A stretch of 64,000 nt of DNA from Candidatus Parcubacteria bacterium (GCA_019661865.1 JAIFWJ010000002.1:52898-116897); one strand, 5' to 3'; counted from the stretch's first letter, positions 1,719-30,689 are shown. Program-made: numbers and translations. The notes: generated from the sequence alone by a model not told the origin.

Positions 1719-1722
1719 TTTG

Positions 1723-1795
1723 TGCCCCCAGTAGGAATCGGACCTACGACCCTCTCCTTAAAAGGGAGCTGCTCTACCAACTGAGCTATGGGGGC
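1723..1795 (-). tRNA. tRNA-Lys (anticodon TTT)
   Basis: The reverse complement folds as a cloverleaf: acceptor GCCCCCA/TGGGGGC, D-arm GCTC-AGTTGGTA-GAGC, anticodon loop CTTTTAA, T-arm GTAGG-TCCGATT-CCTAC. Confidence 0.7.
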
Positions 1796-11336: not shown

Positions 11337-11865
11337 ACTTCTTTCTCCAGAGCAGAATAAGATTGTGGAAGGCGAGTATAAGCGCAGGAGGTTTATTGTA
11401 TTTCTACTTGGACTGAACTTCGTACTTGTGCTCGGAGTTATCGGGCTTTTCCCCACGTATGCACTGGTCACTACGAGACTTACCGCAGTTAACGATCTGA
11501 TTAGTAATCTCAACCACAACATGGGTACCTCCACAGATGCAGATCTTAAGGCTTGGGCAGACGAGACCAACAAGACATTGGCGCTTCTCACTCCAGTTAA
11601 TGACACCGATGCGCCGTATGAATTCTTCCAAGAGATAATTAATTCTAAGTCCTCGGGAGTCCACTTAAGCGCACTCTCTTGGCATAAGGATGCTAAGAAG
11701 GTTTCTCTCATTCTTACTGGAGTGGCCAAGGACAGACAGGCCCTTCTTGACTTCGAAAGTAAGTTAAACAGTTCTTCCAAGTTCGCCCCAACGAACTTCC
11801 CGGTGTCGGATTTGGCACAAGATAAAGATATTAACTTCCAAGTGACCTTAAATCCTGCTTTATGA
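11329..11865 (+). CDS. PilN-like single-pass membrane protein
   Basis: N-terminal transmembrane helix after a basic stretch; its position after the pilM-like gene supports the call. Confidence 0.45.
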   Translation: MFKLLSPEQNKIVEGEYKRRRFIVFLLGLNFVLVLGVIGLFPTYALVTTRLTAVNDLISNLNHNMGTSTDADLKAWADETNKTLALLTPVNDTDAPYEFFQEIINSKSSGVHLSALSWHKDAKKVSLILTGVAKDRQALLDFESKLNSSSKFAPTNFPVSDLAQDKDINFQVTLNPAL

Positions 11866-15092: not shown

Positions 15093-15165
15093 GGTGCCTA
15101 TAGTGTAATGGTTAGCACTGAAGCTTGTGGAGCTTCCAGTTCGGGTTCAAATCCCGATAGGCACC
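15093..15165 (+). tRNA. tRNA-His (anticodon GTG), with encoded G-1 and C73
   Basis: G(-1)-GTGCCTA...GAAGC-TTGTGGA-GCTTC...TCGGG-TTCAAAT-CCCGA-TAGGCAC-C. The 3' half is overlapped by the recombinase ORF on the opposite strand. Confidence 0.75.
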
Positions 15166-16746
15166 CCTTTCGGTCGTTAATATAACTGCCTCTCTGGGGT
15201 ATATATTTGCGACCACACTAGCTCGTTCCTTTGGTAGGACGAGCTTTTGTGTTTCTTCAGATACCATCGCTCCGATTGTTTCTAGTGCTAAAACTATTGG
15301 AGCCTTCTTTGCTTCCACTATCTTCTTCTCTGAAGCCCTAAACTCATCCCAGAATAGCCCTAAATAAAGGCGCTTGAGTGGATCCGTAGCTTTACCATAC
15401 GCCTTACCGATATCTCTTATTAAAGCTAAGAGTTCTTGAATCACATCAACCTTAAGATTTTTAGACTGTTCTAGTTTATAGATCTCGTCATCGATATTAT
15501 CGATCTGTTCTCGGATGTTTTTCTTAATCCTTGTAAACGCTTCATCAGATAGTGTGCTATTAAGAAGTTTTTCCTCAGCTGTCTCTAATTTCTTTTCAAG
15601 ATTTAATCTTGTGGCTACTAATCTATTTTTCTTTTCTGCTACACCTGATTTCTTGTTCTCGTGTAATTCTTTAACCTTTAATACAATCCTTTCTATAAAT
15701 GCAGGGGAAAATTGTAGGTTATTGAAGTGTTCCTGTACTTGCTGTTCCAAGTCCCACGTTTCCACGTATTTGTCAGTGCATTTAATTTGATCTCCCGACC
15801 TGTTGCAGTGATAATATGATTTTTTCTTGGGTATGTGGTGTTCAGCTGTATATCGTTGTCCGCAAATCGCACAGAAGACAAAACCTTTAAGCAGGAAAGT
15901 ATGTTTGCCTCTGCGGCATGCATATTTATTATGTTCGGCGAGTACCTGCTGGCATCGATCATAAATCTCCTTCGTGATTAAAGCCTCATGATTCGCATTC
16001 TTGTTAATCTTTCCTCTCCAATGTGCTTCTCTGAAGTAGAAAGTAGATTTGAACATTCTAGCCATCTTACTGTGAGCGATTCTTTTCCCGACTAAGGTGA
16101 CGAATCCTTTTTTGTGTAATATGTCTCGTATCTCTAACACAGAATAGTCACCTGTACTCAACATTTGAAATGCCTCTGTGACGAGAGGGCCTCTGATTGG
16201 GTCCGTAACTATTATTCGTATCTTTTCATCTGTAGGATCTCCAGCATTCAGATAACCAATAGGTGCTTTTGTAGGCCAACCACCGTCAGCAAACTTCTGG
16301 TCGGTATTCTTAACTGTTTTTCTTGAGGTAATTTGTGACTGTAATTGGTTCACACCTGCAATTACTAGGTCCATGAAGTTTCCTTCGGGAGTATCTTCCA
16401 TACCTGGTTGTGAGACTGAGACCAATCTCACGTCGGCTTTTTGAAGAAGGATTTTGATAGTGAGATGATCTCTCACATTCCTTGTTAGTCTATCAGTGTC
16501 TTGTACGAAGACTGCTTTTATTGTTTTATCTTCCTGTATTCGCAATAACAGATCCTGTAAGCCAGGACGATTCATGTTCGTGGCTGTTTTGCCTGGATCT
16601 ACGTAGACTCCATCTTCAGCTAACTTATATTCCTTACTATCTTCGATTCCTCTTTCGCAAAGCCTCAATTGTGTTTTAAGTGAGTGACGTTCATCACCAG
16701 CTTGTTCATCAGTTGAAACTCTGCAGTATATTAATGCTTTTTTCAT
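15112..16746 (-). CDS. large serine recombinase (resolvase N-domain, recombinase domain, zinc ribbon, coiled coil)
   Basis: N-terminus MKKALIYCRVSTDEQ carries the catalytic Ser at the canonical position. The 544 aa length and a Cys cluster (CAICGQ...CNRSGDQIKC) fit a large serine recombinase. The C-terminal ~45 codons are the complement of tRNA-His plus its terminator. Confidence 0.85.
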   Translation of the reverse strand: MKKALIYCRVSTDEQAGDERHSLKTQLRLCERGIEDSKEYKLAEDGVYVDPGKTATNMNRPGLQDLLLRIQEDKTIKAVFVQDTDRLTRNVRDHLTIKILLQKADVRLVSVSQPGMEDTPEGNFMDLVIAGVNQLQSQITSRKTVKNTDQKFADGGWPTKAPIGYLNAGDPTDEKIRIIVTDPIRGPLVTEAFQMLSTGDYSVLEIRDILHKKGFVTLVGKRIAHSKMARMFKSTFYFREAHWRGKINKNANHEALITKEIYDRCQQVLAEHNKYACRRGKHTFLLKGFVFCAICGQRYTAEHHIPKKKSYYHCNRSGDQIKCTDKYVETWDLEQQVQEHFNNLQFSPAFIERIVLKVKELHENKKSGVAEKKNRLVATRLNLEKKLETAEEKLLNSTLSDEAFTRIKKNIREQIDNIDDEIYKLEQSKNLKVDVIQELLALIRDIGKAYGKATDPLKRLYLGLFWDEFRASEKKIVEAKKAPIVLALETIGAMVSEETQKLVLPKERASVVANIYPREAVILTTERGAYRDLNPNWKLHKLQC

Positions 16747-16806
16747 ATTTTTTGTTTACACACATCATCTCGAGAACAGTGGATATAGCAAGTGGATTAC
16801 CAAGCT

Positions 16807-17256
16807 CTAAGTAACCTTATTTCTGGCTTTATTTCTAATAGATTTTTGAAGTTCGATACACTCAGGTCTTTGCAGTCTTTCCGTAATACAACGTGCGTAT
16901 GCTTCCACATGAGTCTCTTCTATTCCAATAACTTGGACTTGAAAAAGTAAAATGCTAAATTTTTTCAGAAATGTAGTAAATTTTTCAAGGCAATAAACGC
17001 TTCTAGATATTCGCTCAGAATTGTATACATACACTGCTTTGATTTCATCATCCGATATGATTCTGAGCATCAGTTCTGATAAGGCAGCTCTTTCCATACT
17101 CATACCAGATTGGCCAATATCTGTGTAGGTGCCATTTTCGGCAAGTTCGTAGTCCTTGCTGTTACTGATAGCTAGTCTGGTCAATTTTAATTGAGATTCG
17201 ATAGAGTCCCTGTTCTCTAAACTTGTGGTTCTGCAATAAATAAGTGCTTTTTTCAT
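16807..17256 (-). CDS. resolvase N-terminal-domain-only paralog (possibly catalytically inactive)
   Basis: 149 aa, paralogous to the N-domain of the adjacent recombinase (MKKALIYCR..., IKAVYVYNSERISR). The canonical Ser position is Thr (RTTS versus RVST). Confidence 0.55.
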   Translation of the reverse strand: MKKALIYCRTTSLENRDSIESQLKLTRLAISNSKDYELAENGTYTDIGQSGMSMERAALSELMLRIISDDEIKAVYVYNSERISRSVYCLEKFTTFLKKFSILLFQVQVIGIEETHVEAYARCITERLQRPECIELQKSIRNKARNKVT

Positions 17257-17279
17257 TTTGTTTCTAAGATTTATGGTTA

Positions 17280-17714
17280 TTAGTTCAACTGATCAATATA
17301 TTCCTGTCCTATTTCATCGATTAAGGTTTCCTTGCCATTATTTATGTGTGTGATCTTAAACTGGTCACCAGGTTGATGCTGGTGAAAAATATATTCTCTA
17401 ATATCGTCTTCTGTAGGGGAGGTGAATATCCTTTTATAATCATCTTGAAAAGCATTGGTATTTTTCCAATCTAGCGAATAATAGACAGGACTACTTTCTG
17501 CGTTCTTACTTCTTCTTAAGAGATCGTTAAATATAACTGCATAGTTAATTGATTGATCAATCACATCATATATTTGCCCCGCTTGTTCTAAGAATCTATC
17601 TTCTGCATCCTCAATTTCTTTTGTTGTTAACTTTCTCCCAAGTAGAATAAATGCTTTTCTCTGAACATCTCCCTCTGTGACACTAATCCATTCATTTTCC
17701 ATTACGTAACTCAT
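17280..17714 (-). CDS. hypothetical acidic protein
   Basis: 144 aa, AT-rich, in the same orientation as the recombinase genes. No recognisable domain. Confidence 0.45.
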   Translation of the reverse strand: MSYVMENEWISVTEGDVQRKAFILLGRKLTTKEIEDAEDRFLEQAGQIYDVIDQSINYAVIFNDLLRRSKNAESSPVYYSLDWKNTNAFQDDYKRIFTSPTEDDIREYIFHQHQPGDQFKITHINNGKETLIDEIGQEYIDQLN

Positions 17715-17756
17715 ATTTTTATTTAATTTAATAAGGTAATTGATACGGCATTCGAG

Positions 17757-18176
17757 TTATCCATCGCCAGTATTGTGCCTAAGATAAAACGGATAAATTT
17801 CATCATGGAGTTTTGAGAGTGTTTTCTTTTTCTCTCGTGCATGTTGCAAGAGAGGTGTGTGCCATTTCTTCTGTACGCGTATCAGAACGGTTTCTCTTTT
17901 ACGCTTGAAACCCTTTCTAGCTTCCTTGAGCTCTTTCCGAGCGCGTATCTTTTGTTGTTTGAATTTGATAATCATAATTTGTTTACATTTTCTGCATACG
18001 GTCACTTTTTCTCCCCTTATTCTTCGGATGTTTAACTGTGAAGATTTATATATGCCCATAGGTAAGCGCTTTTTCGGCCAGTCAGGTTCTCCTAATTCCT
18101 GAATTTTTGTCTGGTGATAGATCGCTTGAGTTCTTATTGATTGGCAGATAAGGGTCCCCCGTTGAGAAGTGCTCAC
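17757..18176 (-). CDS. hypothetical highly basic (Lys/Arg-rich) protein
   Basis: 139 aa with KKRLP...CRKCKQ...KQQKIRARKELKEARKGFKRKRE. A structured GC-rich region lies directly upstream. Confidence 0.4.
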   Translation of the reverse strand: MSTSQRGTLICQSIRTQAIYHQTKIQELGEPDWPKKRLPMGIYKSSQLNIRRIRGEKVTVCRKCKQIMIIKFKQQKIRARKELKEARKGFKRKRETVLIRVQKKWHTPLLQHAREKKKTLSKLHDEIYPFYLRHNTGDG

Positions 18177-18461
18177 TCAGAGCGGGGACTGGTATCTGAC
18201 AACCAAGAAGTATTGAGCCAATTTTTTATAGAGGATCCGCTGACTACCTCTTACTGTGGGTTTGTTCTGAATTTACTTGAGCAGTATCTTTTTGCTCGAT
18301 TTGCATTAGCAAAATTTCCGCGAGGCGGTCCAAGAAGAAATCTACCGATTCTTCCTCAGTAGATTTTCTTTTATGTGTTTTTACTTCTGGAATCGCCATA
18401 TGCTTATCTTTGCATGAGGCCCTATCTACCGCGCATCTACCTTTAGCGTTCCAAAACAATA

Positions 18462-18492
18462 AAAAAGCCCCTTATTTCCAGGGGTTTTTCTT
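18462..18492 (-). terminator. bidirectional hairpin terminator downstream of the 228 aa gene
   Basis: Stem aagcccct...aggggttt with T-tracts on both strands. Confidence 0.5.
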
Positions 18493-18518
18493 TTATTTAT
18501 CAACAGCGTAACTGAGAA

Positions 18519-19205
18519 TCACTTCACGCGGTATACCTTGTCAGAACTTTTTGCTATTACGTTCAAAACTCTATAACCAGCAGTTTTATTATTATCGATA
18601 ATCGAATTAAGGGGAACGTTAAACGCATCTTGCACCACTTTCCTTATTTCCCCGACAGTTCTACGGATGCTTGTAGGTGTGGCGTCAAACTTATCGGCGA
18701 GGTCTTTAGTTTTGATGTATTTCTTTGCTTTTGCCAGGAAGAATAGAACTTTATAACGCTTTCCACCCATTTCCATTTGATGTGGAGGTTTTTTGCTACC
18801 CTTTAACGATAAGTAACCGTCTATTAAGTTAAATGCATATAATTTCTTACTTGCTTGGCTCTTTTTCAAATCAGCCTCTAAGTCTTTACTATGATTTAAG
18901 AGTCCGTCAGCGTTGAAAACTGTAATTTTCACATCCCTCGGTGTCTTGAGAGGAGCTGCCATATTAATATCGGCGGCACTGCTAATTGAGGTACGAAAAA
19001 TAAACTGATATTCAAAAATGTTCTTTAGGGACTGCTGCAAGTTATCTAGGGCTCTTTTCAGAACATCCAGATCATTTATCAGTGTTTCCTTTAAGAAATT
19101 ATCTATTGATATAACAATACTTCCGTTTTTCTTTCGCTTGCCAAACTTCTTAAGTATTGTGTCTGTTAGGGCTTTCTCAATAAGATTATCGTAGTCGGTC
19201 TTCAT
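18519..19205 (-). CDS. hypothetical protein with a C-terminal HTH-like region (possible replication or regulatory protein)
   Basis: 228 aa; the C-terminus KTKDLADKFDATPTSIRRTVGEIRK looks like a helix-turn-helix. Its terminator lies downstream. It is divergent from a repeat-rich intergenic region. Confidence 0.45.
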   Translation of the reverse strand: MKTDYDNLIEKALTDTILKKFGKRKKNGSIVISIDNFLKETLINDLDVLKRALDNLQQSLKNIFEYQFIFRTSISSAADINMAAPLKTPRDVKITVFNADGLLNHSKDLEADLKKSQASKKLYAFNLIDGYLSLKGSKKPPHQMEMGGKRYKVLFFLAKAKKYIKTKDLADKFDATPTSIRRTVGEIRKVVQDAFNVPLNSIIDNNKTAGYRVLNVIAKSSDKVYRVK

Positions 19206-19345
19206 GTTTCTTAATCTTATCTCTTTTCATAGAAAATGCTAAGCCTGTTGGCATAGGGCTAATTATAATGGTAAAATTTGAGCACAATTGAATAAGAAAT
19301 GACCTAACCCCTCGAGCTAAAACTTTAGGATATGGTCGAAAATCC

Positions 19346-19392
19346 CATGGAAGATACTGAACCCCACGTTCAGCGACTCTTCCATGGGTCAC
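19346..19392. repeat. nested inverted repeat carrying CCATGG motifs (candidate operator, iteron or ncRNA)
   Basis: cccatggaaga-ta-ctgaac-cccac-gttcag-cgac-tcttccatggg. A third cccatggaa copy sits at 19476 and a GNRA hairpin gggccGCAAggccc at 19422. Confidence 0.4.
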
Positions 19393-19479
19393 ATCGGGAA
19401 ACTGGTGTGTGGGCCGCAAGGCCCTGCTGGCGTGGGGTTCTGTGTTTCCACGCTAGCAATTATTCGCTAGTAAAAACCC

Positions 19480-19923
19480 ATGGAAACAAAATCTTCGGTG
19501 AACAACAGTAAGTTTTTGAAAGCGGTTGTGATAATTTTTGGAGTGCTAGTCATAGTAATTTTAATAGCGAGTTCTTCAAATAGCAGTACCCCCGCACCAC
19601 AGGCAGCTGCTCCAAGTGCTGAAGAATTGAGAGTTGCTGCAGAACAAAAGAAGGCTGAGAATGATGCCTTTCTCACTACTCCTGCAGGTAAACTTTGTGC
19701 AAAGTATCCAACGTGGAGAAAGGATGACTGCGAGGGACTAATCAACAATGAGGTCTGGGCGGGGATGACCTTCGAAATGATCACATACCTTCGAGGCAAG
19801 CCTGATCATACAAATATCTCCAACTATGGAGGCAACAACAGGTATCAATACTGCTGGACCAATTTACGACCGTCCTGTTTTTATGACAACAATAATGACG
19901 GAGTTCTAGAAAGTTTTAATTAG
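19480..19923 (+). CDS. hypothetical secreted or membrane-anchored Cys-containing protein
   Basis: 147 aa with an N-terminal hydrophobic helix, a Ser/Pro/Ala linker and four Cys in the mature part. Confidence 0.45.
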   Translation: METKSSVNNSKFLKAVVIIFGVLVIVILIASSSNSSTPAPQAAAPSAEELRVAAEQKKAENDAFLTTPAGKLCAKYPTWRKDDCEGLINNEVWAGMTFEMITYLRGKPDHTNISNYGGNNRYQYCWTNLRPSCFYDNNNDGVLESFN

Positions 19924-20013
19924 CGGGCAAAAAACCTTGTGAGGTATGGGTGAATGGAAGTTCTCCCCATTCCGTCTCTAAGTGTATTAACGTTTATCTG
20001 TTAAAATACATAC

Positions 20014-21093
20014 ATGAGGAAAGTAAAATACGATTTAGCACCTAAAAAAGTAATAGTAGAGAAAAGTTTTAGATCGGCTCCTCCAATGCCTACTATTGAT
20101 ATTGAAAATAGAAGGTATATTGGCAGCAAGGCTAAGCTCTTGGATTGGATTTTTGAACACGTAAAAAGAGAGTGCAAGGGTAATAGTTTTGCAGATATTT
20201 TTGCAGGAACAGGCGTTGTGTCAGCGCGTGCTGCTCGTACGTATAACAAAATTATTTTAAATGATTTACTGCACTCAAATTTTGCCGTCTATCAAGGTTT
20301 TTTTGCGCAAGAAAAGTACGACAGAGAGAAGGTTTTTAATTTCGTCTCTCATTACAATTCAATAAATCCTGTCGACGTCGAACACAATTTTTTCTCGAAA
20401 AACTTTGGTGGAAAATTTTTTGATACTTCCGCAGCAAAGCTGATAGGATTTATACGAGAGGACTTAAAAAAGAGAAGAGGGGAGCTAAACAACAAGGAGT
20501 ACCATATATTACTTACTTCTTTGTTGTACTCTGCAGATAAAATTGCTAACACAGTGGGACACTATGAGGCTTATTTTAAAAACAGTATTTCAGATAGAAA
20601 TTTCAGTTTTCGCTTAATTGAGCCATTGATTAAGGCAGGTAGCGTGTCTATTTATCGCGAAGATGCAAATAAATTGGCACATAAATTAAAGGCTGATATA
20701 GTCTACATAGATCCTCCCTATAACTCTCGGCAGTATAGCCGTTTCTACCATGTTCTTGAGACGCTGGCTCTTTGGGATAACCCTAAATTGTCAGGTGTGG
20801 CATTAAAGCGTCCAGAAGAGAACATGAGTGATTATTGTAGGGTTAAAGCATCTACAGTCTTTGCTGATCTTATAAAAAACCTAGAGACAAAATATATTGT
20901 TGTTTCATATAACAATACATATAAATCTAAGAGTAGCTCTTCAAGAAATAAGATAGAGTTAGAAACCATTGAACAGATTTTAAATTCTAAAGGGAAGACA
21001 AAGGTATTCAAGAAGAATCATCAGTTCTTCAATGCTGGTAAAACCAACTTTGATGATCATCAAGAATTTCTGTTTATTACAAAAGTAAAATGA
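20014..21093 (+). CDS. Dam-family N6-adenine DNA methyltransferase (alpha class)
   Basis: Motif X-like YIGSKAKLL, motif I FAGTGVV and motif IV DIVYIDPPY. Confidence 0.85.
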   Translation: MRKVKYDLAPKKVIVEKSFRSAPPMPTIDIENRRYIGSKAKLLDWIFEHVKRECKGNSFADIFAGTGVVSARAARTYNKIILNDLLHSNFAVYQGFFAQEKYDREKVFNFVSHYNSINPVDVEHNFFSKNFGGKFFDTSAAKLIGFIREDLKKRRGELNNKEYHILLTSLLYSADKIANTVGHYEAYFKNSISDRNFSFRLIEPLIKAGSVSIYREDANKLAHKLKADIVYIDPPYNSRQYSRFYHVLETLALWDNPKLSGVALKRPEENMSDYCRVKASTVFADLIKNLETKYIVVSYNNTYKSKSSSSRNKIELETIEQILNSKGKTKVFKKNHQFFNAGKTNFDDHQEFLFITKVK

Positions 21094-22001
21094 ACCCCGA
21101 TGTTCGGCTTAAACGATCACCATTTTTCTATGTAGGCGATAAGTTTAAACTTATAGCAGAGATTAGAAAACATTTCCCAGAAAAAATTAATACTTTTGTG
21201 GAGCCTTTTTTGGGTGGAGGAAGTGTTTTTTTAAACGTAGACGCTAAACATTATGTCCTCAATGATATAGATGAAAACGTTATTGCACTTCATAAATTTC
21301 TAACAAGTCAGGCAAGTAAAGAAAAGGCCTTAGTTACGCGTATTAAAGATCTTGTAGAGCAATATAATCTATCTTGTTCTGTGTTTGAAAATGTAGTTCC
21401 GATTGAACTTAAAAAGAAATGGCCAAAAACTTATTATGCCGAGTTTAACCGTAAGGGTTATGGCTTGCTCAAGTCTGATTACAATACATCAAAGAAAAAA
21501 GATCTATTAGTTTTGTTTCTTTTATTAATATATGGGTTTAATAGAATGTTGCGCTTTAACCGCAAAGGAGAATTCAACATTCCTGTAGGTAACGTAGATT
21601 TCAATCAGAATGTATTAAAGGCTCTACAGGATTATTTTGTTACCGCACGAGAGAAAGAGGTTAGTTTTTCTGCTCAAGACTTTAAAAAATTCCTTACGAG
21701 TCAAAAATTTAGTAAAAATGACTTTGTGTATGTTGACCCTCCATACTTGATATCAGCAAGTGAATACAATAAGTTGTGGAATGAAGAATTAGACGGTGAA
21801 TTGATGCAGATTTTGGACAGACTTAATGACAAAGGTATTAGGTTCGCACTCTCGAATATATCTGCTTACAATGGCAGAAAAAACGAAAAACTGATATCTT
21901 GGATGAAAAAGTACAATGTTTATCCTATAAAGAGCAACTACATAAGTTATCACAATAACACCAAGAAAGAGATAACTGAGGTATTGATAACAAATTATTA
22001 A
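21090..22001 (+). CDS. Dam-family N6-adenine DNA methyltransferase (second, DpnA/MboIC-like position)
   Basis: YVGDKFKLI, EPFLGGGSVF and VYVDPPY. It overlaps the upstream methyltransferase by 4 nt. Confidence 0.85.
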   Translation: MNPDVRLKRSPFFYVGDKFKLIAEIRKHFPEKINTFVEPFLGGGSVFLNVDAKHYVLNDIDENVIALHKFLTSQASKEKALVTRIKDLVEQYNLSCSVFENVVPIELKKKWPKTYYAEFNRKGYGLLKSDYNTSKKKDLLVLFLLLIYGFNRMLRFNRKGEFNIPVGNVDFNQNVLKALQDYFVTAREKEVSFSAQDFKKFLTSQKFSKNDFVYVDPPYLISASEYNKLWNEELDGELMQILDRLNDKGIRFALSNISAYNGRKNEKLISWMKKYNVYPIKSNYISYHNNTKKEITEVLITNY

Positions 22002-22002
22002 A

Positions 22003-23532
22003 ATGCCAATCAGACACAGTAATCAGTTTAAACCGCTATTGTTTACAACTACCGTTCGAAACCCTGAAAGATTGAAGGGTATGCTTTCTGTGCTCAAGGA
22101 CTATAACAGTGAAGTCCTTACTAATATCTTGGCTGAAAAGGTGGCGGGAGAATTAATTAAAATTGGTTTATATCAACCTACTCGTGTAGGAGATGAGATC
22201 AAAGAAAAATGGGACGCAGGGCTACCGCTTTTAGATGAGGAGGTCACTGTCATACTTCAAACTAATCCACAGAATCACAAGGAAGCAGGATTCGAAAGAG
22301 GTTGGGCTTCGAGGTTTGATACATGGTTTAAATTAGCAAAAGAGCTAGGTTTTGTTTATTACGATATGGGTCAACCAATGGAGTTTTCAGCTATTGGTCT
22401 TAAGCTCGCTGACACTGAACATCCTGAATTTGAACAGCAGGCATTTCTAAATGCATTTGCTAAGTATCAGCGAAACAATCCTCTGCGACGTGTATCAAAC
22501 GAGAATGCACCTCTTATTTTGTTATTAGAGGTAATAAAAAAGATTAACGCTGATCCTGATTTTAATGATGCAGGTATAACTAAATTAGAGGTGCCCCTGC
22601 TTTTAACTTGGAAAGATAATAATGCTGAAGCTCTCTATCAAAAGATTAAGCAAATCCGTGCCGAATATAAATATGAGCCAAGTTGGGAAGTCATACTTAA
22701 AGAGGTTGATGAACTCACTGGAGGTAGACATGCTTCAATGCCAGACAGGACAATTATGGTTGAGTACGTCGATGATTTCTTGAGAAAAATGCGTCTGACA
22801 GGCCTAATAACATCTAGAGGCTTTGGGAAATTTGTCGATTTAAACAAAAAAGAAATTGCTAAGATAGATTATGTTCTTGAACGATATTCTCAATATCCAA
22901 AACATACTACCGAAAGAGAGTATTTTGATTACATATCTTCAATTGATGAAAAATTAATTTCAATTGAAAGGGTGTATGAGACTGATATTGAAGAAGAAAA
23001 TAGGCTTTTGCAGAAGTGGGCTACTCACTTTGATTGGTCAACGTTAAAAACCGAAATTCTTAAGCTGACGACCAGCAGGCCCTCATCTAGTGATGAAGTT
23101 TTGTCACTTATTCCCAGCCCTCTAAGATTGGAGTTTCTTATTTCTCTTGCTGTTATAAGTAAATTGCCCTCTGTAATCGTTAAACCTAATTACATATCTG
23201 ATGATGAGGGTCTTCCTTCTTCTCATGCTCCTGGTAATGGTTCAGACATTGAATGTGAACAAAAAGAGAAATATACCTTGTTGGAGGTTACCCTGTTGAA
23301 TGGTGTAGCTCAAGTTCAAAGGGAAATGGCACCGATAAGTCGACATCTTCAAGACTTTAAAAAAGATCATAAGGATACATCTACTTTTTTCATTGCTCCA
23401 GTGATTCATGCTGACACCATACGCTGGGCGGATTTTATTAAGCACAAGGACGGCCTAGACATAGTAAATTTTTCAATATCCGACTTTATCGCCAAACTTG
23501 ATAGTGGAATAAGCGAGCTACGTTCTTTTTAA
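22003..23532 (+). CDS. putative restriction endonuclease partner of the two methyltransferases (function inferred from context only)
   Basis: 509 aa and translationally coupled to the methyltransferases. No clean PD-(D/E)xK motif could be assigned by eye; candidates are GSDIECEQK and MPD...EYVDD. Confidence 0.35.
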   Translation: MPIRHSNQFKPLLFTTTVRNPERLKGMLSVLKDYNSEVLTNILAEKVAGELIKIGLYQPTRVGDEIKEKWDAGLPLLDEEVTVILQTNPQNHKEAGFERGWASRFDTWFKLAKELGFVYYDMGQPMEFSAIGLKLADTEHPEFEQQAFLNAFAKYQRNNPLRRVSNENAPLILLLEVIKKINADPDFNDAGITKLEVPLLLTWKDNNAEALYQKIKQIRAEYKYEPSWEVILKEVDELTGGRHASMPDRTIMVEYVDDFLRKMRLTGLITSRGFGKFVDLNKKEIAKIDYVLERYSQYPKHTTEREYFDYISSIDEKLISIERVYETDIEEENRLLQKWATHFDWSTLKTEILKLTTSRPSSSDEVLSLIPSPLRLEFLISLAVISKLPSVIVKPNYISDDEGLPSSHAPGNGSDIECEQKEKYTLLEVTLLNGVAQVQREMAPISRHLQDFKKDHKDTSTFFIAPVIHADTIRWADFIKHKDGLDIVNFSISDFIAKLDSGISELRSF

Positions 23533-23543
23533 ATGGCTGCAGG

Positions 23544-24068
23544 CTACGCCCTAGGGTGCCTTTTCACATATGTCTCAAAACCTCCTAATATGGACGTTCT
23601 TAATTTTTCGTATCTTAAATACCTCTTAGTAGGTTTACCCCTATAGGATTGCCGAATCGAAAGAAAACTTATCTGTTTAAACTTGAGATGATTGCGTAAT
23701 GCGGGTTGTATTGATCTATAATTTGCATAAGAGACTTCATATTTTAGACCTAAACATTTCCTACATTCAAATTTGTCCTCGTTAAGGTACAGTATCCCGC
23801 GTCGTGCTGAACACTCAGGACAGGTAAACCAGTACCTAACTCCTCCATAGTTACATTTTGTCTTAGTGAGTTTTATGATGTCTTTCTGGTCAGTTTTAAT
23901 ACCCCAGCATTCGGTTTCAGAATTACGACTTAAGCTAAGCTGAACGTTATTTATCAAAAAATGTTGCTCAAAAGGAAGCCGAGCAAGGATGCCAGCTTGT
24001 TTTATCTTAAATATATTTATAGACTTCCTACTCTCAGTGAGTCCTCTAATTGTAAATAGATCTCTCAT
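23544..24068 (-). CDS. hypothetical zinc-ribbon protein
   Basis: 174 aa with CPEC-x15-CRKC. Confidence 0.4.
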   Translation of the reverse strand: MRDLFTIRGLTESRKSINIFKIKQAGILARLPFEQHFLINNVQLSLSRNSETECWGIKTDQKDIIKLTKTKCNYGGVRYWFTCPECSARRGILYLNEDKFECRKCLGLKYEVSYANYRSIQPALRNHLKFKQISFLSIRQSYRGKPTKRYLRYEKLRTSILGGFETYVKRHPRA

Positions 24069-24455
24069 GGTGAAAATTCAATAATTCAGAAATCATTAGG
24101 GATTATCCACATTGGCAACCCTGCAACTTTAGGAAAATTAGCTTTGTTTGCTTGATAAAAAGGAATTTTACTTGTGGCGGACTGATGCAGTGATAGGGAT
24201 ATGGAATCCGCATGCCTTTACACGCTTTAATCGTCGAGTTCTGTCCTGTTCTTCAACTCTTGCATTACCTTCGCACACAGCTCAATTTACGCTGTCACGG
24301 GGGCCTGCTGGAAGGCAGCAATAAGGTTCATTTTCTCCTTAACGCTAGCCATATACTCTCTGTCGGATAGTATTGTTATAATATCTGTCTGACACTGACC
24401 CCAATATTTCTCAGAACTTGTAAAGGCTACAGATCCCACCACAATGAGTGAGAAA

Positions 24456-24490
24456 ATCAAAAGAGCACCTACAGGGTGCTCTTTTGATTT
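24456..24490. terminator. bidirectional hairpin terminator
   Basis: aaagagcacc-tacag-ggtgctcttt with T-rich tails on both strands. Confidence 0.45.
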
Positions 24491-24530
24491 GCGTGTGGTA
24501 GGGTGACCTCGGACATAACTCGAGGTCTGT

Positions 24531-24971
24531 ATGTCAACTCTTGTATCCTTGTGTGGAGCAGAGTCTTTTTGGAGCAATGGCACAAGCAAAGAGGGCATCA
24601 GTGAAATAGTGCCAAGGGTAATTGATGGCACACCCTCGTTAGTACTCGCGGTGTTTGGCAGAAAGCAAGGAGAGCAGAAGTGGGAAATTCTCGCCGGGGT
24701 TAGTGGGTCAGCGGTAAAAGACTCCGATCTGAAACTTGAGCATTTCCGTCACCTCATGTCTGGCGAGTTTAAGTATGGGTATGCAGAAGTGATGCTTGTC
24801 CGGCTTTTTTGTATCCAGATGGATGAGAACGAAGGCCCCAAGCTCCAAAAGGACGAACCACCACCTAAACCCTTCCGACGCAAGCATCAGTGCTCAGTCT
24901 GTGGTAGTACAGAGCACAACAAGAAATTCCACGATAACAAAGGAGATAACGTAGCGAGCACTCAGAGATGA
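24531..24971 (+). CDS. hypothetical protein with a C-terminal zinc-knuckle-like motif
   Basis: 146 aa, about 50% GC, with CSVCGSTEHNKKFH. Its own terminator lies at 24951-24985. Confidence 0.4.
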   Translation: MSTLVSLCGAESFWSNGTSKEGISEIVPRVIDGTPSLVLAVFGRKQGEQKWEILAGVSGSAVKDSDLKLEHFRHLMSGEFKYGYAEVMLVRLFCIQMDENEGPKLQKDEPPPKPFRRKHQCSVCGSTEHNKKFHDNKGDNVASTQR

Positions 24972-24985
24972 GTGCTCTTTTTTGT
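24951..24985 (+). terminator. rho-independent terminator
   Basis: agcactc-agagat-gagtgct followed by cttttttgt. Confidence 0.45.
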
Positions 24986-25030
24986 ACCTTAATCTTGTAG
25001 CTGCACAGCTTTGTTGATAAAATCGCCCAA

Positions 25031-25609
25031 ATGACAGGGTTTCTCAAGGAAATTGATCAGAGACTGAGAGTCCTCGCAGAGCAACCTACGGCGGTGATTC
25101 ATAAAGATTGGGTGCAAGTGGTTATGTCGACCCTTCGACAACATCTAGAAGCGCTGGGACAGCAACGACGGTATCCAATTCTCATGTTCTATTGCAATTG
25201 GTGTCAGCACAAAGATCTGCATCGTGGTATCGTTCAAGATCTGCTTGAAAAGATCACTGAAATCATAGTGGATGACACTACGGGTCACCCAGCGGATCGA
25301 ATCTCTGAAATACTCTCGCTTACCACCTTCAGATCTGACATCAGAGACATTCTCAAGAAAGGCCTCGGTGTGCAGGCAGGGCTGTTCGAGGATTATGACA
25401 ACTGGAGGAAATTCACTGAGTTGCTGTTTCCATTCATTCTTGAAAAGCCTCTAAAGCGTAAAAGAAAGGCAAAGACACATCACTGGGTTGAATTGCTAGA
25501 GCTATTTGATAATGGTGGCCATGTATTTTGGCGAATTCGTGTCGAGCCTGGCGGTAGCAATTTCATAGGACCTCTACTTCGGACTGAAGACGCGCTAAAT
25601 GCGCAATAA
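25031..25609 (+). CDS. hypothetical protein
   Basis: 192 aa, about 50% GC, with a KRKRKAK patch. No recognisable domain. Confidence 0.4.
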   Translation: MTGFLKEIDQRLRVLAEQPTAVIHKDWVQVVMSTLRQHLEALGQQRRYPILMFYCNWCQHKDLHRGIVQDLLEKITEIIVDDTTGHPADRISEILSLTTFRSDIRDILKKGLGVQAGLFEDYDNWRKFTELLFPFILEKPLKRKRKAKTHHWVELLELFDNGGHVFWRIRVEPGGSNFIGPLLRTEDALNAQ

Positions 25610-26042
25610 ATCGACTCTCAATCACTTGGTTGGAGTAGTGTCTATTAGTGTCATTACCAGACAAGGCCATTAAAGAGTTCATCGAAATATGGAAGAGGGA
25701 ATTTGGTGAGACGCTTAGTCCAGATGGGGCAAGGTCCGAAGCAGGGCGTCTGATCTTCTTCTTTCAGTTACTTAGAGAGAAATTTCCTCAAAGTATCGAT
25801 GACCACATAAAAAGGAGCTCCTAGTTGTCAGAGCTCCTTTGTCGTGCGTTAACCACTCACGCCTGACGCGATGTGTCGTCTTTGATGCGCCAGACAGACA
25901 GTTAAGCTAAAATAGTTCTACTGGTTAGGCAGGACGCGGACTCATTCTGTCGTTAATGATTCGGATATTCTTCACCGCTTGCATCACATCCGGATCGCGC
26001 AGCGCTAACAGGGTTCGAACGTCGTTCCCAAATGCACCCCAA

Positions 26043-26615
26043 ATGGAAAAACTTTTAGAATTTATTGAACTCACTCGTAAGTTTAGGGCGGTGAAGCGCA
26101 GGGTTATTTTTGCAGAGGATAAACAGCAAGAGAATGATATTGAACATAGTTTTCAGCTTGCTCTTACTGCTTGGTATCTTATAAATACGGACAAAATAAA
26201 GCTTGATGTAGAAAAGGCTTTGAAGTATGCATTGGCGCATGACTTGGTGGAGGTTTACGCCGGAGATACGCCCTCAGCCGTTCATAGGTCATATGAAGCT
26301 GAGAGACATACTAAGAAAGCTCGTGAGGAAGAGGCTCTGAAAAGGATAAAGAAAGAATTCCCTGAGTTTAAAGAACTCCATAAGATTATCCATGCGTATG
26401 AGAAGAGAGAAGATAAGGAGAGCAGGTTTGTCTATGCATTAGACAAGGTTATGCCTATCTTAAATATTTACTTGGATAAAGGATATTCTTGGAAGGTAAA
26501 TGATGTAAAGGTGAAAGATGTCATTGCTTATAAGAAAGATCAGATAGCTGAGTCACCTGAGGTGAAGAAGTATTTCGACCAACTAGTACCTCTTATCCGC
26601 AAACTTGAGTTATGA
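26043..26615 (+). CDS. HD-domain phosphohydrolase (YfbR-like 5'-deoxynucleotidase)
   Basis: HSFQLALTAWYL...ALAHDLVEVYAGDTP is the HD motif. The start is taken at MEKLLEF. Confidence 0.75.
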   Translation: MEKLLEFIELTRKFRAVKRRVIFAEDKQQENDIEHSFQLALTAWYLINTDKIKLDVEKALKYALAHDLVEVYAGDTPSAVHRSYEAERHTKKAREEEALKRIKKEFPEFKELHKIIHAYEKREDKESRFVYALDKVMPILNIYLDKGYSWKVNDVKVKDVIAYKKDQIAESPEVKKYFDQLVPLIRKLEL

Positions 26616-27265: not shown

Positions 27266-27457
27266 ATGGAAGATATTCCAAAACCAAAGAAGAAAATTGA
27301 TAGTAATGCCATAGTTTCCCCGAAGACCACCAAGAAGCTCTATGGAGAAAATCTTGATATCAAGGAGCCAGTAGCCGGCCAGTCCGACGAGATAAATACC
27401 GAGCTCCCTGAAGATATAGACAACATCGAGGAGAACTTGTTTCCGAGTGCGCCCTAA
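27266..27457 (+). CDS. small acidic hypothetical protein
   Basis: 63 aa. Confidence 0.25.
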   Translation: MEDIPKPKKKIDSNAIVSPKTTKKLYGENLDIKEPVAGQSDEINTELPEDIDNIEENLFPSAP

Positions 27458-27981
27458 GGTCTAAGTATGAAGCGGTAGGGTTTCTCACTCCATTCCTTAG
27501 CATAGGAGACGCCGATACGAGGTGTTCTCAAGATGTTCCTGGGATTTACTTTTGCTCCGTCCTCTATCCAGAGACCAGACTTTACTCCTAGCTTCTTTCC
27601 ATTTAGACTCCGATCTATGCCGAATTCTTTCGTTACTCTGCCTGGACCCCTTACTCTCTCAGTACTTCTTATAAGCACTGCGGCAGGGAAGTCACGTTCT
27701 TCAGTCACAATGTTAAGCATCCAATGCACTCCGTATATAAAGTAAACATATATAGTCCCTGCATCTTGGTACATCACTTCAGTCCTGGGTGTACGACCTT
27801 TAGAGGAGTGTGAGGCAAGATCATGTGGACCTATGTATGCTTCCACTTCTGTAATTTTCTCTCGGATAGTTTTGTTACCAATTTTTCTGACTAAAAATTT
27901 ACCAATTAAATTTTTGGCCACCGTTAGAGTTTTTCTCCGGAAAAATTTGTTTGTCAATCTTCTCATACACATATTGTGCAC
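27454..27981 (-). CDS. mpg: DNA-3-methyladenine glycosylase (AAG/Mpg family)
   Basis: ITEVEAYIG..D.ASHS..GRTPR....MY...G..YVYFIYG is the family signature. Confidence 0.85.
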   Translation of the reverse strand: MHNMCMRRLTNKFFRRKTLTVAKNLIGKFLVRKIGNKTIREKITEVEAYIGPHDLASHSSKGRTPRTEVMYQDAGTIYVYFIYGVHWMLNIVTEERDFPAAVLIRSTERVRGPGRVTKEFGIDRSLNGKKLGVKSGLWIEDGAKVNPRNILRTPRIGVSYAKEWSEKPYRFILRP

Positions 27982-28110
27982 CAGAGCATTTTATTATGCT
28001 TGACGGAGTACCTCAACCTGAGTAGATTAGCTCTCAGGCATGCACATTAGTAGTTCCTACCGAAGCACGTCGCGTGCCCAGTAACCCTCTTACCTCTATG
28101 AGGTAGACAA

Positions 28111-28299
28111 ATGAAACAGATGGTCACAGATCCGGCTGTGTCCACCAACACTCCCACAACTCCATCGACGAATCGGACATGTATCCGCGTCGGCCCAGGA
28201 GGGAAGAGGAGTCGTGTCGAGCTGGGAAGCGGGAGATTCATCGAGAACCTCCCTCCAGTCCCGAGGCATGTCACGACTGACGGCAAAACCTGGTCATAA
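28111..28299 (+). CDS. hypothetical small protein in a GC-rich islet (alternatively part of an ncRNA)
   Basis: 62 aa, about 58% GC. An SD (gaggt) sits 6 nt upstream and two strong hairpins follow. Confidence 0.25.
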   Translation: MKQMVTDPAVSTNTPTTPSTNRTCIRVGPGGKRSRVELGSGRFIENLPPVPRHVTTDGKTWS

Positions 28300-28345
28300 C
28301 GACCAGGTCACCAGCCCGCGGCTACAAGCCGCGGGCTACCCTTAT
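28300..28345 (+). terminator. tandem hairpins (tggtc-ataac-gacca and the 10-bp stem agcccgcggc-tacaa-gccgcgggct)
   Basis: A perfect GC-rich stem followed by AT-rich sequence. There is no clean T-tract, so it could instead be a structural RNA end. Confidence 0.35.
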
Positions 28346-28393
28346 ATAAATTATATAAATTTTTATAAACAATTTTCAGATTATAATTATTAA

Positions 28394-29059
28394 ATGAATC
28401 CATTTCCTAATTGGGCACGCAATATACTTTTTCTTCTGGTGTGCATTCTTTCAGGTTTGGCTCTTGTGATTATCATTAACGGATTAACTACTGGTACAGA
28501 ATTAACTCCATTCAATACAGCTGTCGAACATTTAGTTACTCCCTTCCGTCATGGATGGTTAACTAAAGTCATGCTCTTCACCACAAACCTGGGTTCTCCT
28601 ACAGCACTTTTATTCTTCGGAATTCTCCTGGCTATATATCTTCTTCTGAATAAAGATACTTATGACGCTCTTCTTTACGTAGTATCCATACTCGTTTCTA
28701 TTATTTCATTTATAGTACTTAAAAATATGTTTGTCATAGCACGACCAGACCAAGCTCTTACCACACTTTCTACATGGAGCTTTCCCTCTGGACATGCCAC
28801 AGTGGCTACAGCCTTCTTCTTCGCCACTGCTTATTCTTTCTGGGATCATTTTAAAACCTTCATGAGTAAAATTACTTTTGTTATTTTCTGTATCGTCTCT
28901 GCGACACTGATCTGCTTTTCTAGGCTTTATCTTGGTGTTCATTGGGCACTCGATGTGCTAGCGGGTGTGGCATTAGGACTACTCTCAGTTAGCTTCACCC
29001 TCCTTATCTTCAATATTTTCTTAGAAGAAAGGACTTGGTGGAGAAGGAGAAGGGTGTGA
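28394..29059 (+). CDS. PAP2-family phosphatase (BcrC/PgpB-like)
   Basis: Motifs K-x6-RP, PSGH and SR-x5-H-x3-D sit in a multi-pass transmembrane context. Confidence 0.75.
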   Translation: MNPFPNWARNILFLLVCILSGLALVIIINGLTTGTELTPFNTAVEHLVTPFRHGWLTKVMLFTTNLGSPTALLFFGILLAIYLLLNKDTYDALLYVVSILVSIISFIVLKNMFVIARPDQALTTLSTWSFPSGHATVATAFFFATAYSFWDHFKTFMSKITFVIFCIVSATLICFSRLYLGVHWALDVLAGVALGLLSVSFTLLIFNIFLEERTWWRRRRV

Positions 29060-29063
29060 TAAG

Positions 29064-29855
29064 ATGTTCTCCATGCAGAACGAAAACACACAGTCCCTTA
29101 TCAAATGGGGAAGAATCGTATTAATAATGTTGGGCGTTTTCTTAATAGTTGAGGCACTTGTGGGACTAAAGAGTCTTAGAACTCCAACCCCAGCCGTAAA
29201 TGTCATCTCTATTACCGGTACAGGAGAGGTGATGGTGGTACCAGATATAGCCACAGTCTCATATACTGTTTCAGCCGATGCTAAGGATGTGGCTACTGCG
29301 CAAGAGAGTGTCACCACTAAGATGGATAATATTCTAAACGCACTCAAGAATCTGGGTATAGATGACAAGGATGTAAAGACAACTAATTACAATGTTTATC
29401 CTAAGTACACGTATACTTCTACAGTTTGTACGGTGAACAACTGCCCTCCCTCTCGCCAGATTCCCGACGGATACACGGTAAGTCACGATATAACGGTAAA
29501 GATTAGAAAGACTGACAATGCAGGTAAGGTCCTTGCAGCTCTTGGCTCGAATGGAGCTACCAATATATCCTCAGTAACATTTACAACCGATGATCCAGAG
29601 AAGGTTCAGAATGAGGCAAGGGACAAGGCCATCGCAGATGCTAAGTCTAAGGCTGAAGTTCTTTCTAAGAGTCTTGATATCGACCTTGACCACATCGTGA
29701 ACTTCTACGATAACTCTGGATATCCGTATCCTGTATATGGTATGGGTGGTATGGATCTTAAGGCTCAGTCAGCTGCCCCGGCTGTTGCTCCCACTCTTCC
29801 AACAGGGGAGAACAAGGTAACTTCTAGCGTCACCTTGGTCTACGAAATCCGCTAG
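29064..29855 (+). CDS. SIMPL/DUF541-like periplasmic protein
   Basis: Signal anchor followed by ISITGTGEVMVVPDIATVSYTV, which resembles the SIMPL pattern. Confidence 0.55.
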   Translation: MFSMQNENTQSLIKWGRIVLIMLGVFLIVEALVGLKSLRTPTPAVNVISITGTGEVMVVPDIATVSYTVSADAKDVATAQESVTTKMDNILNALKNLGIDDKDVKTTNYNVYPKYTYTSTVCTVNNCPPSRQIPDGYTVSHDITVKIRKTDNAGKVLAALGSNGATNISSVTFTTDDPEKVQNEARDKAIADAKSKAEVLSKSLDIDLDHIVNFYDNSGYPYPVYGMGGMDLKAQSAAPAVAPTLPTGENKVTSSVTLVYEIR

Positions 29856-29923
29856 GCTTGCCTTAAGTAAAAGCCTCTGGTATTATCTAAAAAGCGCTCA
29901 AGGGGGCGTTTTTTAGTAAACAA

Positions 29924-30106
29924 ATGTCTAGACTAGGAAATTACATACAGGAGACTCGTGCGGAGCTCACCCACGTCAAGTGGCCCACTAGGCGCCAGGC
30001 TGTTGGCTTCACTATTATCGTTATCCTCATATCCATACTTACCTCGCTCTTCTTGGGCTTCTTCGACTATGTCTTCTCTCTGGTTATCCAGAAGTTTGTT
30101 CTTTAA
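29924..30106 (+). CDS. secE: preprotein translocase subunit SecE
   Basis: 60 aa with one transmembrane helix and KWPTRRQ. Its position upstream of nusG-rplK supports the call. Confidence 0.8.
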   Translation: MSRLGNYIQETRAELTHVKWPTRRQAVGFTIIVILISILTSLFLGFFDYVFSLVIQKFVL

Positions 30107-30116
30107 TCGAATTTAC

Positions 30117-30662
30117 ATGACAAAACAAAAAATCTCAGAAGGTAGAAATTGGTACGTCATTCACACCTATGCAGGATATGAGAATGCTGTGCAGAGAAAT
30201 CTTAAGCAGCGCATCGAGTCACTCGGCATGGAGGACAAGATTTTTAACGTAGTCGTACCGACAGAGAAGAAGATTAAGATTAAGAATGGAAAGCGAGTGG
30301 AAGAGGAAGAGAAAATTTATCCGGGTTATATCTTGGTAGACATGATCGTGACCGATGACTCATGGTACGTTGTGCGTAATACTCCTCGCGTGACCGGTTT
30401 CGTCGGTTCTGGAGTTTATCCAGTACCGATAGACAAGACAGAGGTAGACTCACTCTTCCAGCGCATGAATGCAGATAAGGTGCTCCACACTATAAATCTC
30501 ACTACTGATGATGCCGTGCAGATTGTGGACGGTCCGTTTAAGGATTTAGAGGGCAAGGTTAGTGAGGTAGACGAGGAGAGAGGTAAGGTCAAGGTTTTGG
30601 TCTCCATGTTCGGTCGTGAGACCCCAGTTGAACTCGACTTCTTGCAGGTCAAGAAGGTTTAA
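30117..30662 (+). CDS. nusG: transcription antitermination factor NusG
   Basis: NGN domain (WYVIHTYAGYENAV) and KOW domain (GPFKDLEGKVSEV). The ORF track's 29958 start is a frame extension over secE. Confidence 0.85.
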   Translation: MTKQKISEGRNWYVIHTYAGYENAVQRNLKQRIESLGMEDKIFNVVVPTEKKIKIKNGKRVEEEEKIYPGYILVDMIVTDDSWYVVRNTPRVTGFVGSGVYPVPIDKTEVDSLFQRMNADKVLHTINLTTDDAVQIVDGPFKDLEGKVSEVDEERGKVKVLVSMFGRETPVELDFLQVKKV

Positions 30663-30689
30663 GGTATTGTTACGCTCTCAATAATATAT

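Follow-up and report, generated by a model that had tools for sequence, protein, structure and literature searches.

We analyzed a 64,000-nt stretch of the genome of a Candidatus Parcubacteria bacterium (GCA_019661865.1, JAIFWJ010000002.1:52898-116897), referred to here as the window, in which a gene for tRNA-His is followed by what appears to be an integrated element. The region downstream of the tRNA encodes a large serine recombinase (LSR), a restriction-modification (R-M) operon, a copy of the LOOT RNA, and a number of small proteins (Table 1). The LSR gene converges on the tRNA gene and overlaps it: the stop codon of the LSR open reading frame (ORF) lies inside the tRNA D-loop, 56 of the 74 tRNA bases are read antisense, and the final 18 residues of the protein, RGAYRDLNPNWKLHKLQC, are tRNA-His translated antisense. 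The same ORF is read through an intrinsic-terminator-like hairpin, which is supplied by the element and serves the tRNA-His transcript; equivalent hairpins are present in the related loci L002-L007. A first-pass annotation of this DNA had described a 544-aa LSR running antisense through the 3′ half of tRNA-His and the terminator hairpin, and ARAGORN, Rfam, Pfam, and the hairpin scan agree with that description.

Table 1. Features of the tRNA-His locus (positions refer to the window unless a related locus, L, is named; aa, amino acids; HTH, helix-turn-helix)
Feature	Position	Strand	Basis or remark
tRNA-His(GTG), integration target, intact	15094-15167	+	ARAGORN; Rfam tRNA, 63.3 bits
LSR (integrase), 544 aa	15112-16746	-	Pfam, PHROG integrase, alignment
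Left copy of candidate att core GCACCCC, the last 7 nt of tRNA-His	15161-15167	+	Sequence identity
Element-side arm of attL (P′)	15168-15213	.	Inside the LSR 3′ coding end; motif and palindrome
Intrinsic-terminator-like hairpin and T-run	15220-15245	+	Scan; antisense within the LSR ORF
Resolvase-catalytic-domain-only paralog, 149 aa	16807-17256	-	Pfam; 41% identical to the LSR N terminus
Acidic protein, 144 aa, isoelectric point (pI) 4.6	17280-17714	-	Beside the recombinase module in L008, 43% identity
Basic protein, 139 aa, pI 10.6	17757-18176	-	C-terminal ~45 residues kept in L008 and L001
Basic protein, 228 aa, weak HTH, divergent from LOOT	18519-19205	-	HTH_11, E = 0.0017, below the Pfam cut-off
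LOOT unit: promoter-like site, LOOT, 3′ tail	19248-19458	+	Scan, covariance model, duplex energies
LOOT RNA (RF03000)	19301-19425	+	85.7 bits versus gathering score of 46.4; model positions 1-121
Protein with N-terminal hydrophobic anchor, 147 aa	19480-19923	+	54 nt downstream of LOOT
Type II AlwI-family R-M operon	20014-23532	+	Pfam, PADLOC, NCBIfam Dam
M1, D12/Dam-class methyltransferase	20014-21093	+	PF02086
M2, D12/Dam-class methyltransferase	21090-22001	+	PF02086
R, RE_AlwI endonuclease, 509 aa	22003-23532	+	PF09491, 154 bits; NCBI name AlwI family endonuclease
Zinc-ribbon protein, 174 aa	23544-24068	-	Two CxxC pairs, residues 83 and 102
Three unknown ORFs, 146, 192, and 58 aa	24531-25824	+	GC 46%, right part
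Candidate attR: T-arm-like GGTTCGAACGTCGTTCCCAAAT, then exact core GCACCCC (26034-26040)	26012-26040	+	Core identity, pattern search, L081 alignment
LOOT RNA in related loci	L001 7972-8091; L008 1441-1559; L244 7548-7666; L030 5367-5492; L012 7195-7310; L020 2845-2962; L069 9248-9368; L019 6776-6905; L076 907-1013		

The predicted recombinase contains the Resolvase (PF00239, 88 bits), Recombinase (PF07508, 32.3 bits), and Zn_ribbon_recom (PF13408, 40.8 bits) domains, the scores of the latter two both exceeding their cut-offs, and it matches the PHROG integrase family. Its nearest solved structures in the PDB are the TP901-1 and A118 integrases, and the match includes the C-terminal domain of the A118 integrase. 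The catalytic motif, YCRVSTDEQ, is intact, with R9, S11, and Q15 invariant in an alignment with 17 homologs, and the ORF is full length and keeps every invariant residue of the family. The 544-aa ORF thus has the domain content of an LSR, from which catalysis of recombination between attP and attB is predicted. The top match among public proteins is 69% identical, and homologs with 50 to 70% identity are common in Patescibacteria. The LSR is missing from the public protein set of this genome, in which MBX4200139, MBX4200142, MBX4200148, and the endonuclease are all present; it was probably dropped from the annotation owing to its overlap with the tRNA.

To place the locus in its genomic context, 80 related metagenome loci were gathered with ribosomal protein L19 as the anchor. 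Seven relatives (L090, L114, L122, L091, L103, L097, and L104) keep a backbone in which RluA, L19, tRNA-Leu(GAG), and tRNA-His are followed, after 0.4 to 3.7 kb, by MPG and/or a 221-aa protein, SIMPL, NusG, and L11. In the window, the MPG/221-aa, SIMPL, NusG, and L11 genes are found at 27454-31112, and the island genes that precede them are absent from all seven of these relatives. In 28 loci the sequence extends far enough 3′ of tRNA-His to be assessed; 26 of these lack a recombinase at this tRNA, and the other two carry a distant LSR (23 to 24% identical) with the same antisense overlap. The comparison with relatives whose tRNA-His locus is empty, which the first-pass annotation had proposed as a check, therefore came out in favor of an insertion. 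A recombinase match beside tRNA-His in L103 was discarded as the mere antisense translation of the tRNA. The inserted segment also differs in composition from its surroundings, with a GC content of 39.0% compared with 44.5% and 43.2% in the flanks. The closest relative found, L081 (77 to 82% DNA identity), is collinear with the window from 26028-26041, the start of a host HD gene, onward.

The association of the recombinase with tRNA genes extends well beyond this locus. A convergent tRNA was found within 150 nt of the LSR stop codon in 59 of 85 homologous loci, nearly always overlapping it, compared with 2 of the 75 distant LSRs on IMG/VR contigs that served as a control; the trimming that viral contigs often undergo at att sites is a caveat to this control. 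The partner tRNAs represent at least 12 isoacceptor types (His, Asn, Glu, Arg, Gly, Lys, Ser, Ala, Leu, Gln, Met, and Phe); tRNA-His is located at the LSR 3′ end in L001-L010 and L016, and tRNA-Asn, -Lys, or -Ser takes this position in more distant relatives. In an alignment of the homologs, the C termini share RGAYRxSNP…, an antisense reading of the tRNA. The host labels include Patescibacteria, Chloroflexota, Verrucomicrobiota, Melainabacteria, Bacteroidota (among them the cultured Parafilimonas terrae), Actinomycetota, and others. The window thereby exposes a widespread clade of tRNA-targeting serine integrases, to which its LSR belongs. Since the partner tRNA and the cargo change from locus to locus and most relatives are unoccupied, the overlap is the footprint of site-specific integration, as the first-pass annotation had it; a normal, fixed arrangement of host genes, which that annotation had named as a finding that would refute it, is ruled out.

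Exact direct repeats of the last bases of the tRNA, beginning in the T-loop, bound three related islands: a 7.9-kb island at tRNA-Asn in L014 (17 bp), a 9.9-kb island at tRNA-His in L043 (18 bp), and an 8.3-kb island at tRNA-Glu in L075 (13 bp). The window has a second exact copy of GCACCCC, the final 7 nt of tRNA-His, 2 nt ahead of the ATG of the HD gene (26043), at the boundary of homology with L081, and this copy is preceded by the T-arm-like GGTTCGAAC…TCCC. A signature that combines both parts, GGTTCRA-N(8-25)-CACCC, is present at two sites only, tRNA-His and 26012-26039, in the 128 kb that the two strands make up together (0.19 expected). The right end of the island is therefore likely at 26034-26040, where the exact GCACCCC coincides with the start of L081 homology, rather than at 25950 as first annotated, and the crossover can be placed tentatively inside GCACCCC. 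A 9-mer, GTCGTTAAT, found at 15173 and 25949, was also considered as an att core and rejected in favor of GCACCCC, since it is at chance level and lies to the left of the synteny boundary. An ORF begins 0 to 7 nt after tRNA-His in several of the unoccupied relatives, with an ATG at 0 to 2 nt in L114, L096, L095, L097, and L101; the spacing between the right-end GCACCCC and the HD gene resembles this tight arrangement.

The left end has features of its own. The motif T(C/T)TTAATATAAC is located 10 to 20 nt past tRNA-His in the window (TTAATATAAC at 15177-15186) and in L001-L008, and the TTAATATAAC motif is absent from empty tRNA-His sites; as judged from its sequence and position, it fits an LSR half-site. 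It forms the 5′ arm of an imperfect palindrome or hairpin of ∼42 nt (15172-15213, + strand) within the last codons of the LSR. This palindrome is also present in L002, L003, L004, and L007, again with the terminator after it, and the peptide encoded there is poorly conserved; its possible roles include binding of the recombinase, operator function, and a hairpin in the tRNA trailer. In L009, a second T-loop…CACCC sequence resembling a tRNA 3′ end is found ∼30 nt from tRNA-His on the element side, within the LSR 3′ region (11506-11539, - strand), and may have been left behind by a tandem or an earlier integration.

The excised forms of the window island and of the L014, L043, and L075 islands were reconstructed by joining the right-end arm, the core, and the left-end arm. 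In all four islands, the LSR frame runs across the att core. The number of residues encoded after the core start differs between the integrated and excised forms: 18 versus 38 in the window, 42 versus 32 in L014, 19 versus 36 in L043, and 26 versus 4 in L075. Because the ORF crosses the core, the C-terminal tail of the integrase differs between the two states, and attP falls in the 3′-terminal part of the integrase gene. The reconstructed excised-form protein of the window has the tail …RGAFGNDVRT…PRPA. For the window, the predicted attB carries TCCCGATAGGCACCCCAAATGGAAAAAC, with the predicted junction between AATCCCGATAGGCACCCC and AAATGGAAAAACTTTTAG, and the predicted attP carries GTTCCCAAATGCACCCCTTTCGGTCGTTAATATAAC, with the predicted junction between GGTTCGAACGTCGTTCCCAAATGCACCCC and TTTCGGTCGTTAATATAACTGCC.

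Taken together, the segment is most probably an integrative genomic island of ∼10.9 kb (∼15168-26033), bounded by GCACCCC and inserted by the LSR at the 3′ end of tRNA-His, a reading to which we assign a probability of roughly 80%. An integrated element at tRNA-His had been proposed in the first-pass annotation, and three independent lines now converge on it: the synteny break, the association of the recombinase family with tRNAs, and composition together with transfer of the cargo. A number of observations weigh on the other side. The exact repeat at the right end is just 7 nt long, the longer similarity being imperfect (12/18 with an indel), and the GGTTCRA-N(8-25)-CACCC pattern was defined after the sequence had been seen. 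When the 3′ half of the tRNA was compared with the window by plain local alignment, the 25995-26040 site scored 24, versus 25 to 34 for random hits, and Rfam, in E-value mode, found no partial tRNA match in 25600-26100. The loose copy of the tRNA 3′ end that had been annotated at 25995-26040 has 7 exact nt, a T-arm-like sequence, and a signature confined to two sites, and is not recovered by alignment or Rfam. The right end showed no mirror of the TTAATATAAC motif, even with 3 mismatches allowed, and no convincing displaced tRNA-His fragment was found within 10 kb in L001-L010 or, likewise, in L242. The far end of the L001 island, extended through the homolog of the endonuclease, showed neither a shared host backbone nor a tRNA fragment.

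Further points against the island concern its right flank and its mobility. To the left of the HD gene, L081 has other genes (Ham1, HD_4, and fragmented ABC-transporter genes) and no tRNA-His, and L081 1-3170, compared with the window from 26041 onward, suggests that the same junction was rearranged or received a different insertion. None of the fetched relatives has HD directly after tRNA-His, such that the exact empty site was not observed among them. The rightmost 1.9 kb, with its host-like GC content, could be separate DNA. Finally, no excised form and no replication or transfer genes were detected, and the island may be immobile now. A Ham1-like gene is also present in the window (6869-7417, on the other strand) and is just 56% identical to Ham1 of L081.

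An alternative is that the segment is a fixed, immobile remnant, i.e., an ancient insertion with a decayed attR, whose recombinase is retained on other grounds or is yet to decay. The shortness of the exact repeat and an apparent 6-nt insertion in the T-arm-like stretch would suit such a remnant, as would the lack of an excised form or identical copy in any collection and the finding that the genes checked (16807-17256, 18519-19205, and 25031-25609) are singletons at the 90% clustering level. Serine integrases such as those of phiC31 and Bxb1 require just 2 bp of identity at the crossover, so a short core is not a sign of decay; moreover, the recombinase retains its full length and all invariant residues, the R-M operon is intact, and the R-M cassette shows recent horizontal exchange. 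We consider a remnant unlikely on this evidence. A defective prophage, phage satellite, or integrated plasmid, in place of a simple island, is less probable still. The PHROG integrase match is compatible with such an origin, the 228-aa HTH-like protein and LOOT could form a replication or immunity module, and R-M cassettes related to that of the window adjoin Zot and FtsK-like genes in other elements. Against this, the island proteins include no capsid, terminase, portal, tail, lysis, relaxase, Rep, or partition family in searches of Pfam, PHROGs, NCBIfam, and PADLOC, and no relaxase, oriT, or type IV secretion genes as judged by Pfam and NCBIfam; the best LSR relative on a viral contig (IMG/VR) is just 31% identical, and the island spans a mere 10.9 kb. 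A domesticated recombinase (e.g., an invertase or regulator) amid ordinary variable host genes would explain why the overlap is conserved across the family, down to the frame in which the tRNA is read, but it is very hard to reconcile with partner tRNAs that change over 12 types, differing cargo, the 26 of 28 relatives that are recombinase-free, tRNA-end direct repeats around related islands, and the lack of long inverted repeats on either side of any segment.

For the island inserted at tRNA-His, the features described above suggest the following route. In the excised circle, the recombinase gene would contain attP in its 3′-terminal part, as a mimic of the tRNA 3′ end. A recombinase dimer would bring this attP together with its attB, the T-arm/acceptor 3′ end of tRNA-His in the chromosome, and strands would be exchanged within the last few bases of the tRNA, which would remain intact. 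The element would then provide a new 3′ trailer, hairpin, and terminator for the tRNA, and the recombinase ORF, following integration, would extend into the tRNA and reach its stop codon there.

The central cargo of the island is the R-M operon, in which consecutive genes overlap or abut (21090/21093 and 22001/22003). Two Dam-family methyltransferases with a 509-aa partner had been annotated from the sequence; Pfam and PADLOC assign the former to the D12/Dam class and the latter to RE_AlwI, which bears out the suggestion that the island carries defense genes, here a Type II R-M system. The C-terminal catalytic domain of the endonuclease matches the Nt.BspD6I and R.BspD6I subunits, and the operon is probably Type IIS. 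Two separate adenine methylases would fit an asymmetric (Type IIS) site, each protecting one strand, with the endonuclease cutting unmodified incoming DNA. Neither GGATC nor GAGTC is depleted in the window (observed/expected ratios of 1.01 and 0.96). The system resembles those of AlwI and BspD6I in its RE_AlwI family endonuclease and two adenine methylases and differs in that its two Dam-class methylases are separate and not fused. A benefit in defense may be the reason that the island is kept, and R-M systems are also able to persist as selfish addiction modules.

The R-M genes are 70 to 79% identical to those of L001/L242, whose island is also located at tRNA-His and whose LSR is 59% identical, with core proteins at 24 to 56%. 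The cassette recurs, at 74 to 78% identity, in L244 (5106-11536) and L245 beside an LSR that is just 23% identical and overlaps tRNA-Asn, and it is also found in L246 and L247, with no LSR within 10 kb, and in L248 (3070-10456) with a tyrosine integrase, a diversity-generating retroelement (DGR), and a Zot gene. Shared as it is across unrelated contexts, the cassette travels between mobile elements, islands of the present kind among them. Its presence beside unrelated recombinases indicates active exchange of defense genes in very small genomes. The related tRNA-His island of L001 (3864-6417, corresponding to L242 5083-7636) has a DGR of its own, with a reverse transcriptase, a bAvd four-helix protein, and a 233-aa target; a nearby repeat of the region encoding the target C terminus contains amino acid substitutions, as expected for a template/variable-region pair.

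The remaining genes surround the operon on both sides. The resolvase-only paralog, the acidic and basic proteins, and the zinc-ribbon protein were found as first listed. In the 149-aa paralog, the catalytic serine is replaced (Ser to Thr; YCRTTSLEN versus YCRVSTDEQ in the LSR). An ortholog is located at the matching position in L008 (3645-4169, + strand), directly upstream of the LSR, and in both proteins the nucleophilic serine position is altered, with a serine at the next residue (CRTTSLE and CRIASLH). Such conservation points to a noncatalytic partner or regulator rather than a pseudogene. The module comprising the LSR, the resolvase paralog, and the acidic and basic proteins is kept in L008, and in L001 the basic protein alone is found; the latter, of 139 aa in the window, may be ribbon-helix-helix-like, judging from its sequence. 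The gene for the 228-aa protein, annotated earlier as an HTH protein next to repeats, is present, and its HTH amounts to a subthreshold HTH_11 match. Its positional analogs in L001 and L008 are 214 to 237 aa in length, and no homology was detectable among the HTH-like proteins adjoining LOOT in different islands. A homolog of the 174-aa zinc-ribbon protein is encoded just upstream of another recombinase in L019, and none of the fetched loci contains homologs of the 146-, 192-, and 58-aa ORFs. The block around these ORFs, taken earlier to be 50% GC, averages 46.0% and peaks at 49%.

The region next to the 228-aa gene, which had been annotated as iteron-like, contains no tandem or direct repeat array; its structure is that of a full-length LOOT RNA. 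LOOT is listed as a metagenome-derived small RNA, with no function given (Rfam RF03000; Weinberg et al. 2017, PMC5737381; Rfam 14, PMC7779021). The copy in the window, which agrees with the family in being full length and far above the gathering score, is preceded by a promoter-like site at 19248-19277 (10/12 matches and an extended -10). The loci were surveyed with a covariance model derived from three copies, and LOOT was identified in 10 distinct LSR-anchored loci, including the window, at 0.4 to 5 kb from the LSR 5′ end in each; no LOOT was found in the ten host-only loci searched. In 8 of the 10 loci, the protein encoded by the next ORF on the same strand, 11 to 175 nt downstream, includes a strongly hydrophobic segment. 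The 26 nt beyond the Rfam model (19426-19451 in the window) are G-rich and then U-rich, and in 10/10 loci hairpin P2 has, in its 5′ half and apex, ∼20 to 25 nt of complementarity to this tail. The mean energy of cognate tail/P2 duplexes is -28.1 kcal/mol, versus -20.0 kcal/mol for noncognate pairs, and 0 of 20,000 permutations reached the cognate mean. The tail thus suggests an alternative pairing, i.e., a structural switch or terminator-like platform outside the Rfam model. Compared with the Rfam entry, LOOT is here tied to recombinase islands, a downstream membrane-protein gene, and a complementary 3′ tail. The 3′ strand of P2, TTCCATGGGT (19380-19389), is exactly complementary to the start codon region of the downstream ORF, ACCCATGGAA (19476-19485); a similar 9-nt match between P2 and the start codon is found in L030 and in none of the other eight loci.

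These elements could make up a regulatory module that accompanies the recombinase, with LOOT upstream of the membrane-anchored protein, together with the HTH-like, ribbon-helix-helix-like, and acidic proteins and the altered resolvase paralog. A more general model is possible, if doubtful. The cross-phylum clade would use the T-arm/acceptor 3′ end of tRNAs as attB and carry attP in its own last codons; the exchange of C-terminal tails would act as a sensor of the integration state that biases directionality or stability; and the islands of Patescibacteria would carry LOOT as a cis-acting switch, in which an aptamer-like fold and a competing 3′ tail control the membrane-protein gene. The link between LOOT and the islands provides a testable setting for this RNA motif and, if the switch reading is true, would be its first biological context.

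Genes for tRNAs are the classic landing sites of tyrosine integrases, and Islander-type tools, to our knowledge, consider tyrosine integrases only. According to the Islander paper (2014, PMC4383910), serine-family integrases were not known to target tRNA genes (tDNAs), and in a review of integrative mobilizable elements (PMC5704250), the site-specific serine recombinases are said to insert into genes, which are thereby disrupted. The literature searched yielded no account of serine integrases that target tRNAs, and one may exist elsewhere (e.g., in the TIGER database). The island resembles the tDNA islands of Islander/TIGER (PMC4383910) in that an integrase lies beside an intact tRNA, the island is 3′ of the tRNA, the tRNA 3′ end and trailer are restored, a candidate short copy of the tRNA 3′ end is located at the likely far boundary, the cargo includes defense genes, and the size is ∼10 kb. 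Unlike those islands, it has serine-family enzymes as its sole recombinases, with no tyrosine integrase, and an integrase ORF that crosses the att core and ends in the tRNA. The LSR shares the three-domain architecture and, with its candidate att core, the short common core of phiC31, Bxb1, A118, TP901-1, SprA, CcrAB, and TnpX; the characterized enzymes insert into coding genes or show low specificity (PMC5704250), whereas the clade of the window, at low identity to them, is found at the 3′ ends of tRNAs and spares its target. A directionality factor was not identified. In mycobacteriophages such as BPs, attP also lies in a coding region; the integrases are of the tyrosine family, and the switch has a demonstrated regulatory role. 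The window has a comparable architecture, with an att core within an ORF and a protein C terminus altered by integration, and here the enzyme is a serine recombinase.

The island is thus ordinary in its role and unusual in the pairing of recombinase and target. If true, a clade of serine integrases that targets tRNAs and spares them would change how genomic islands are searched for and would offer unidirectional integrases with attB sites in almost any bacterium. Because an integrase that overlaps a tRNA can go unannotated, such islands are easily missed in genomes of the candidate phyla radiation.

One other tRNA in the window called for reannotation. At 1722-1795 (- strand), ARAGORN calls a tRNA-Stop with the anticodon TTA, and it makes the same call in the relative L154. 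A suppressor tRNA was ruled out: in the Rfam alignment, the loop CUUUUAA in its canonical register gives the anticodon UUU, that of an ordinary tRNA-Lys.

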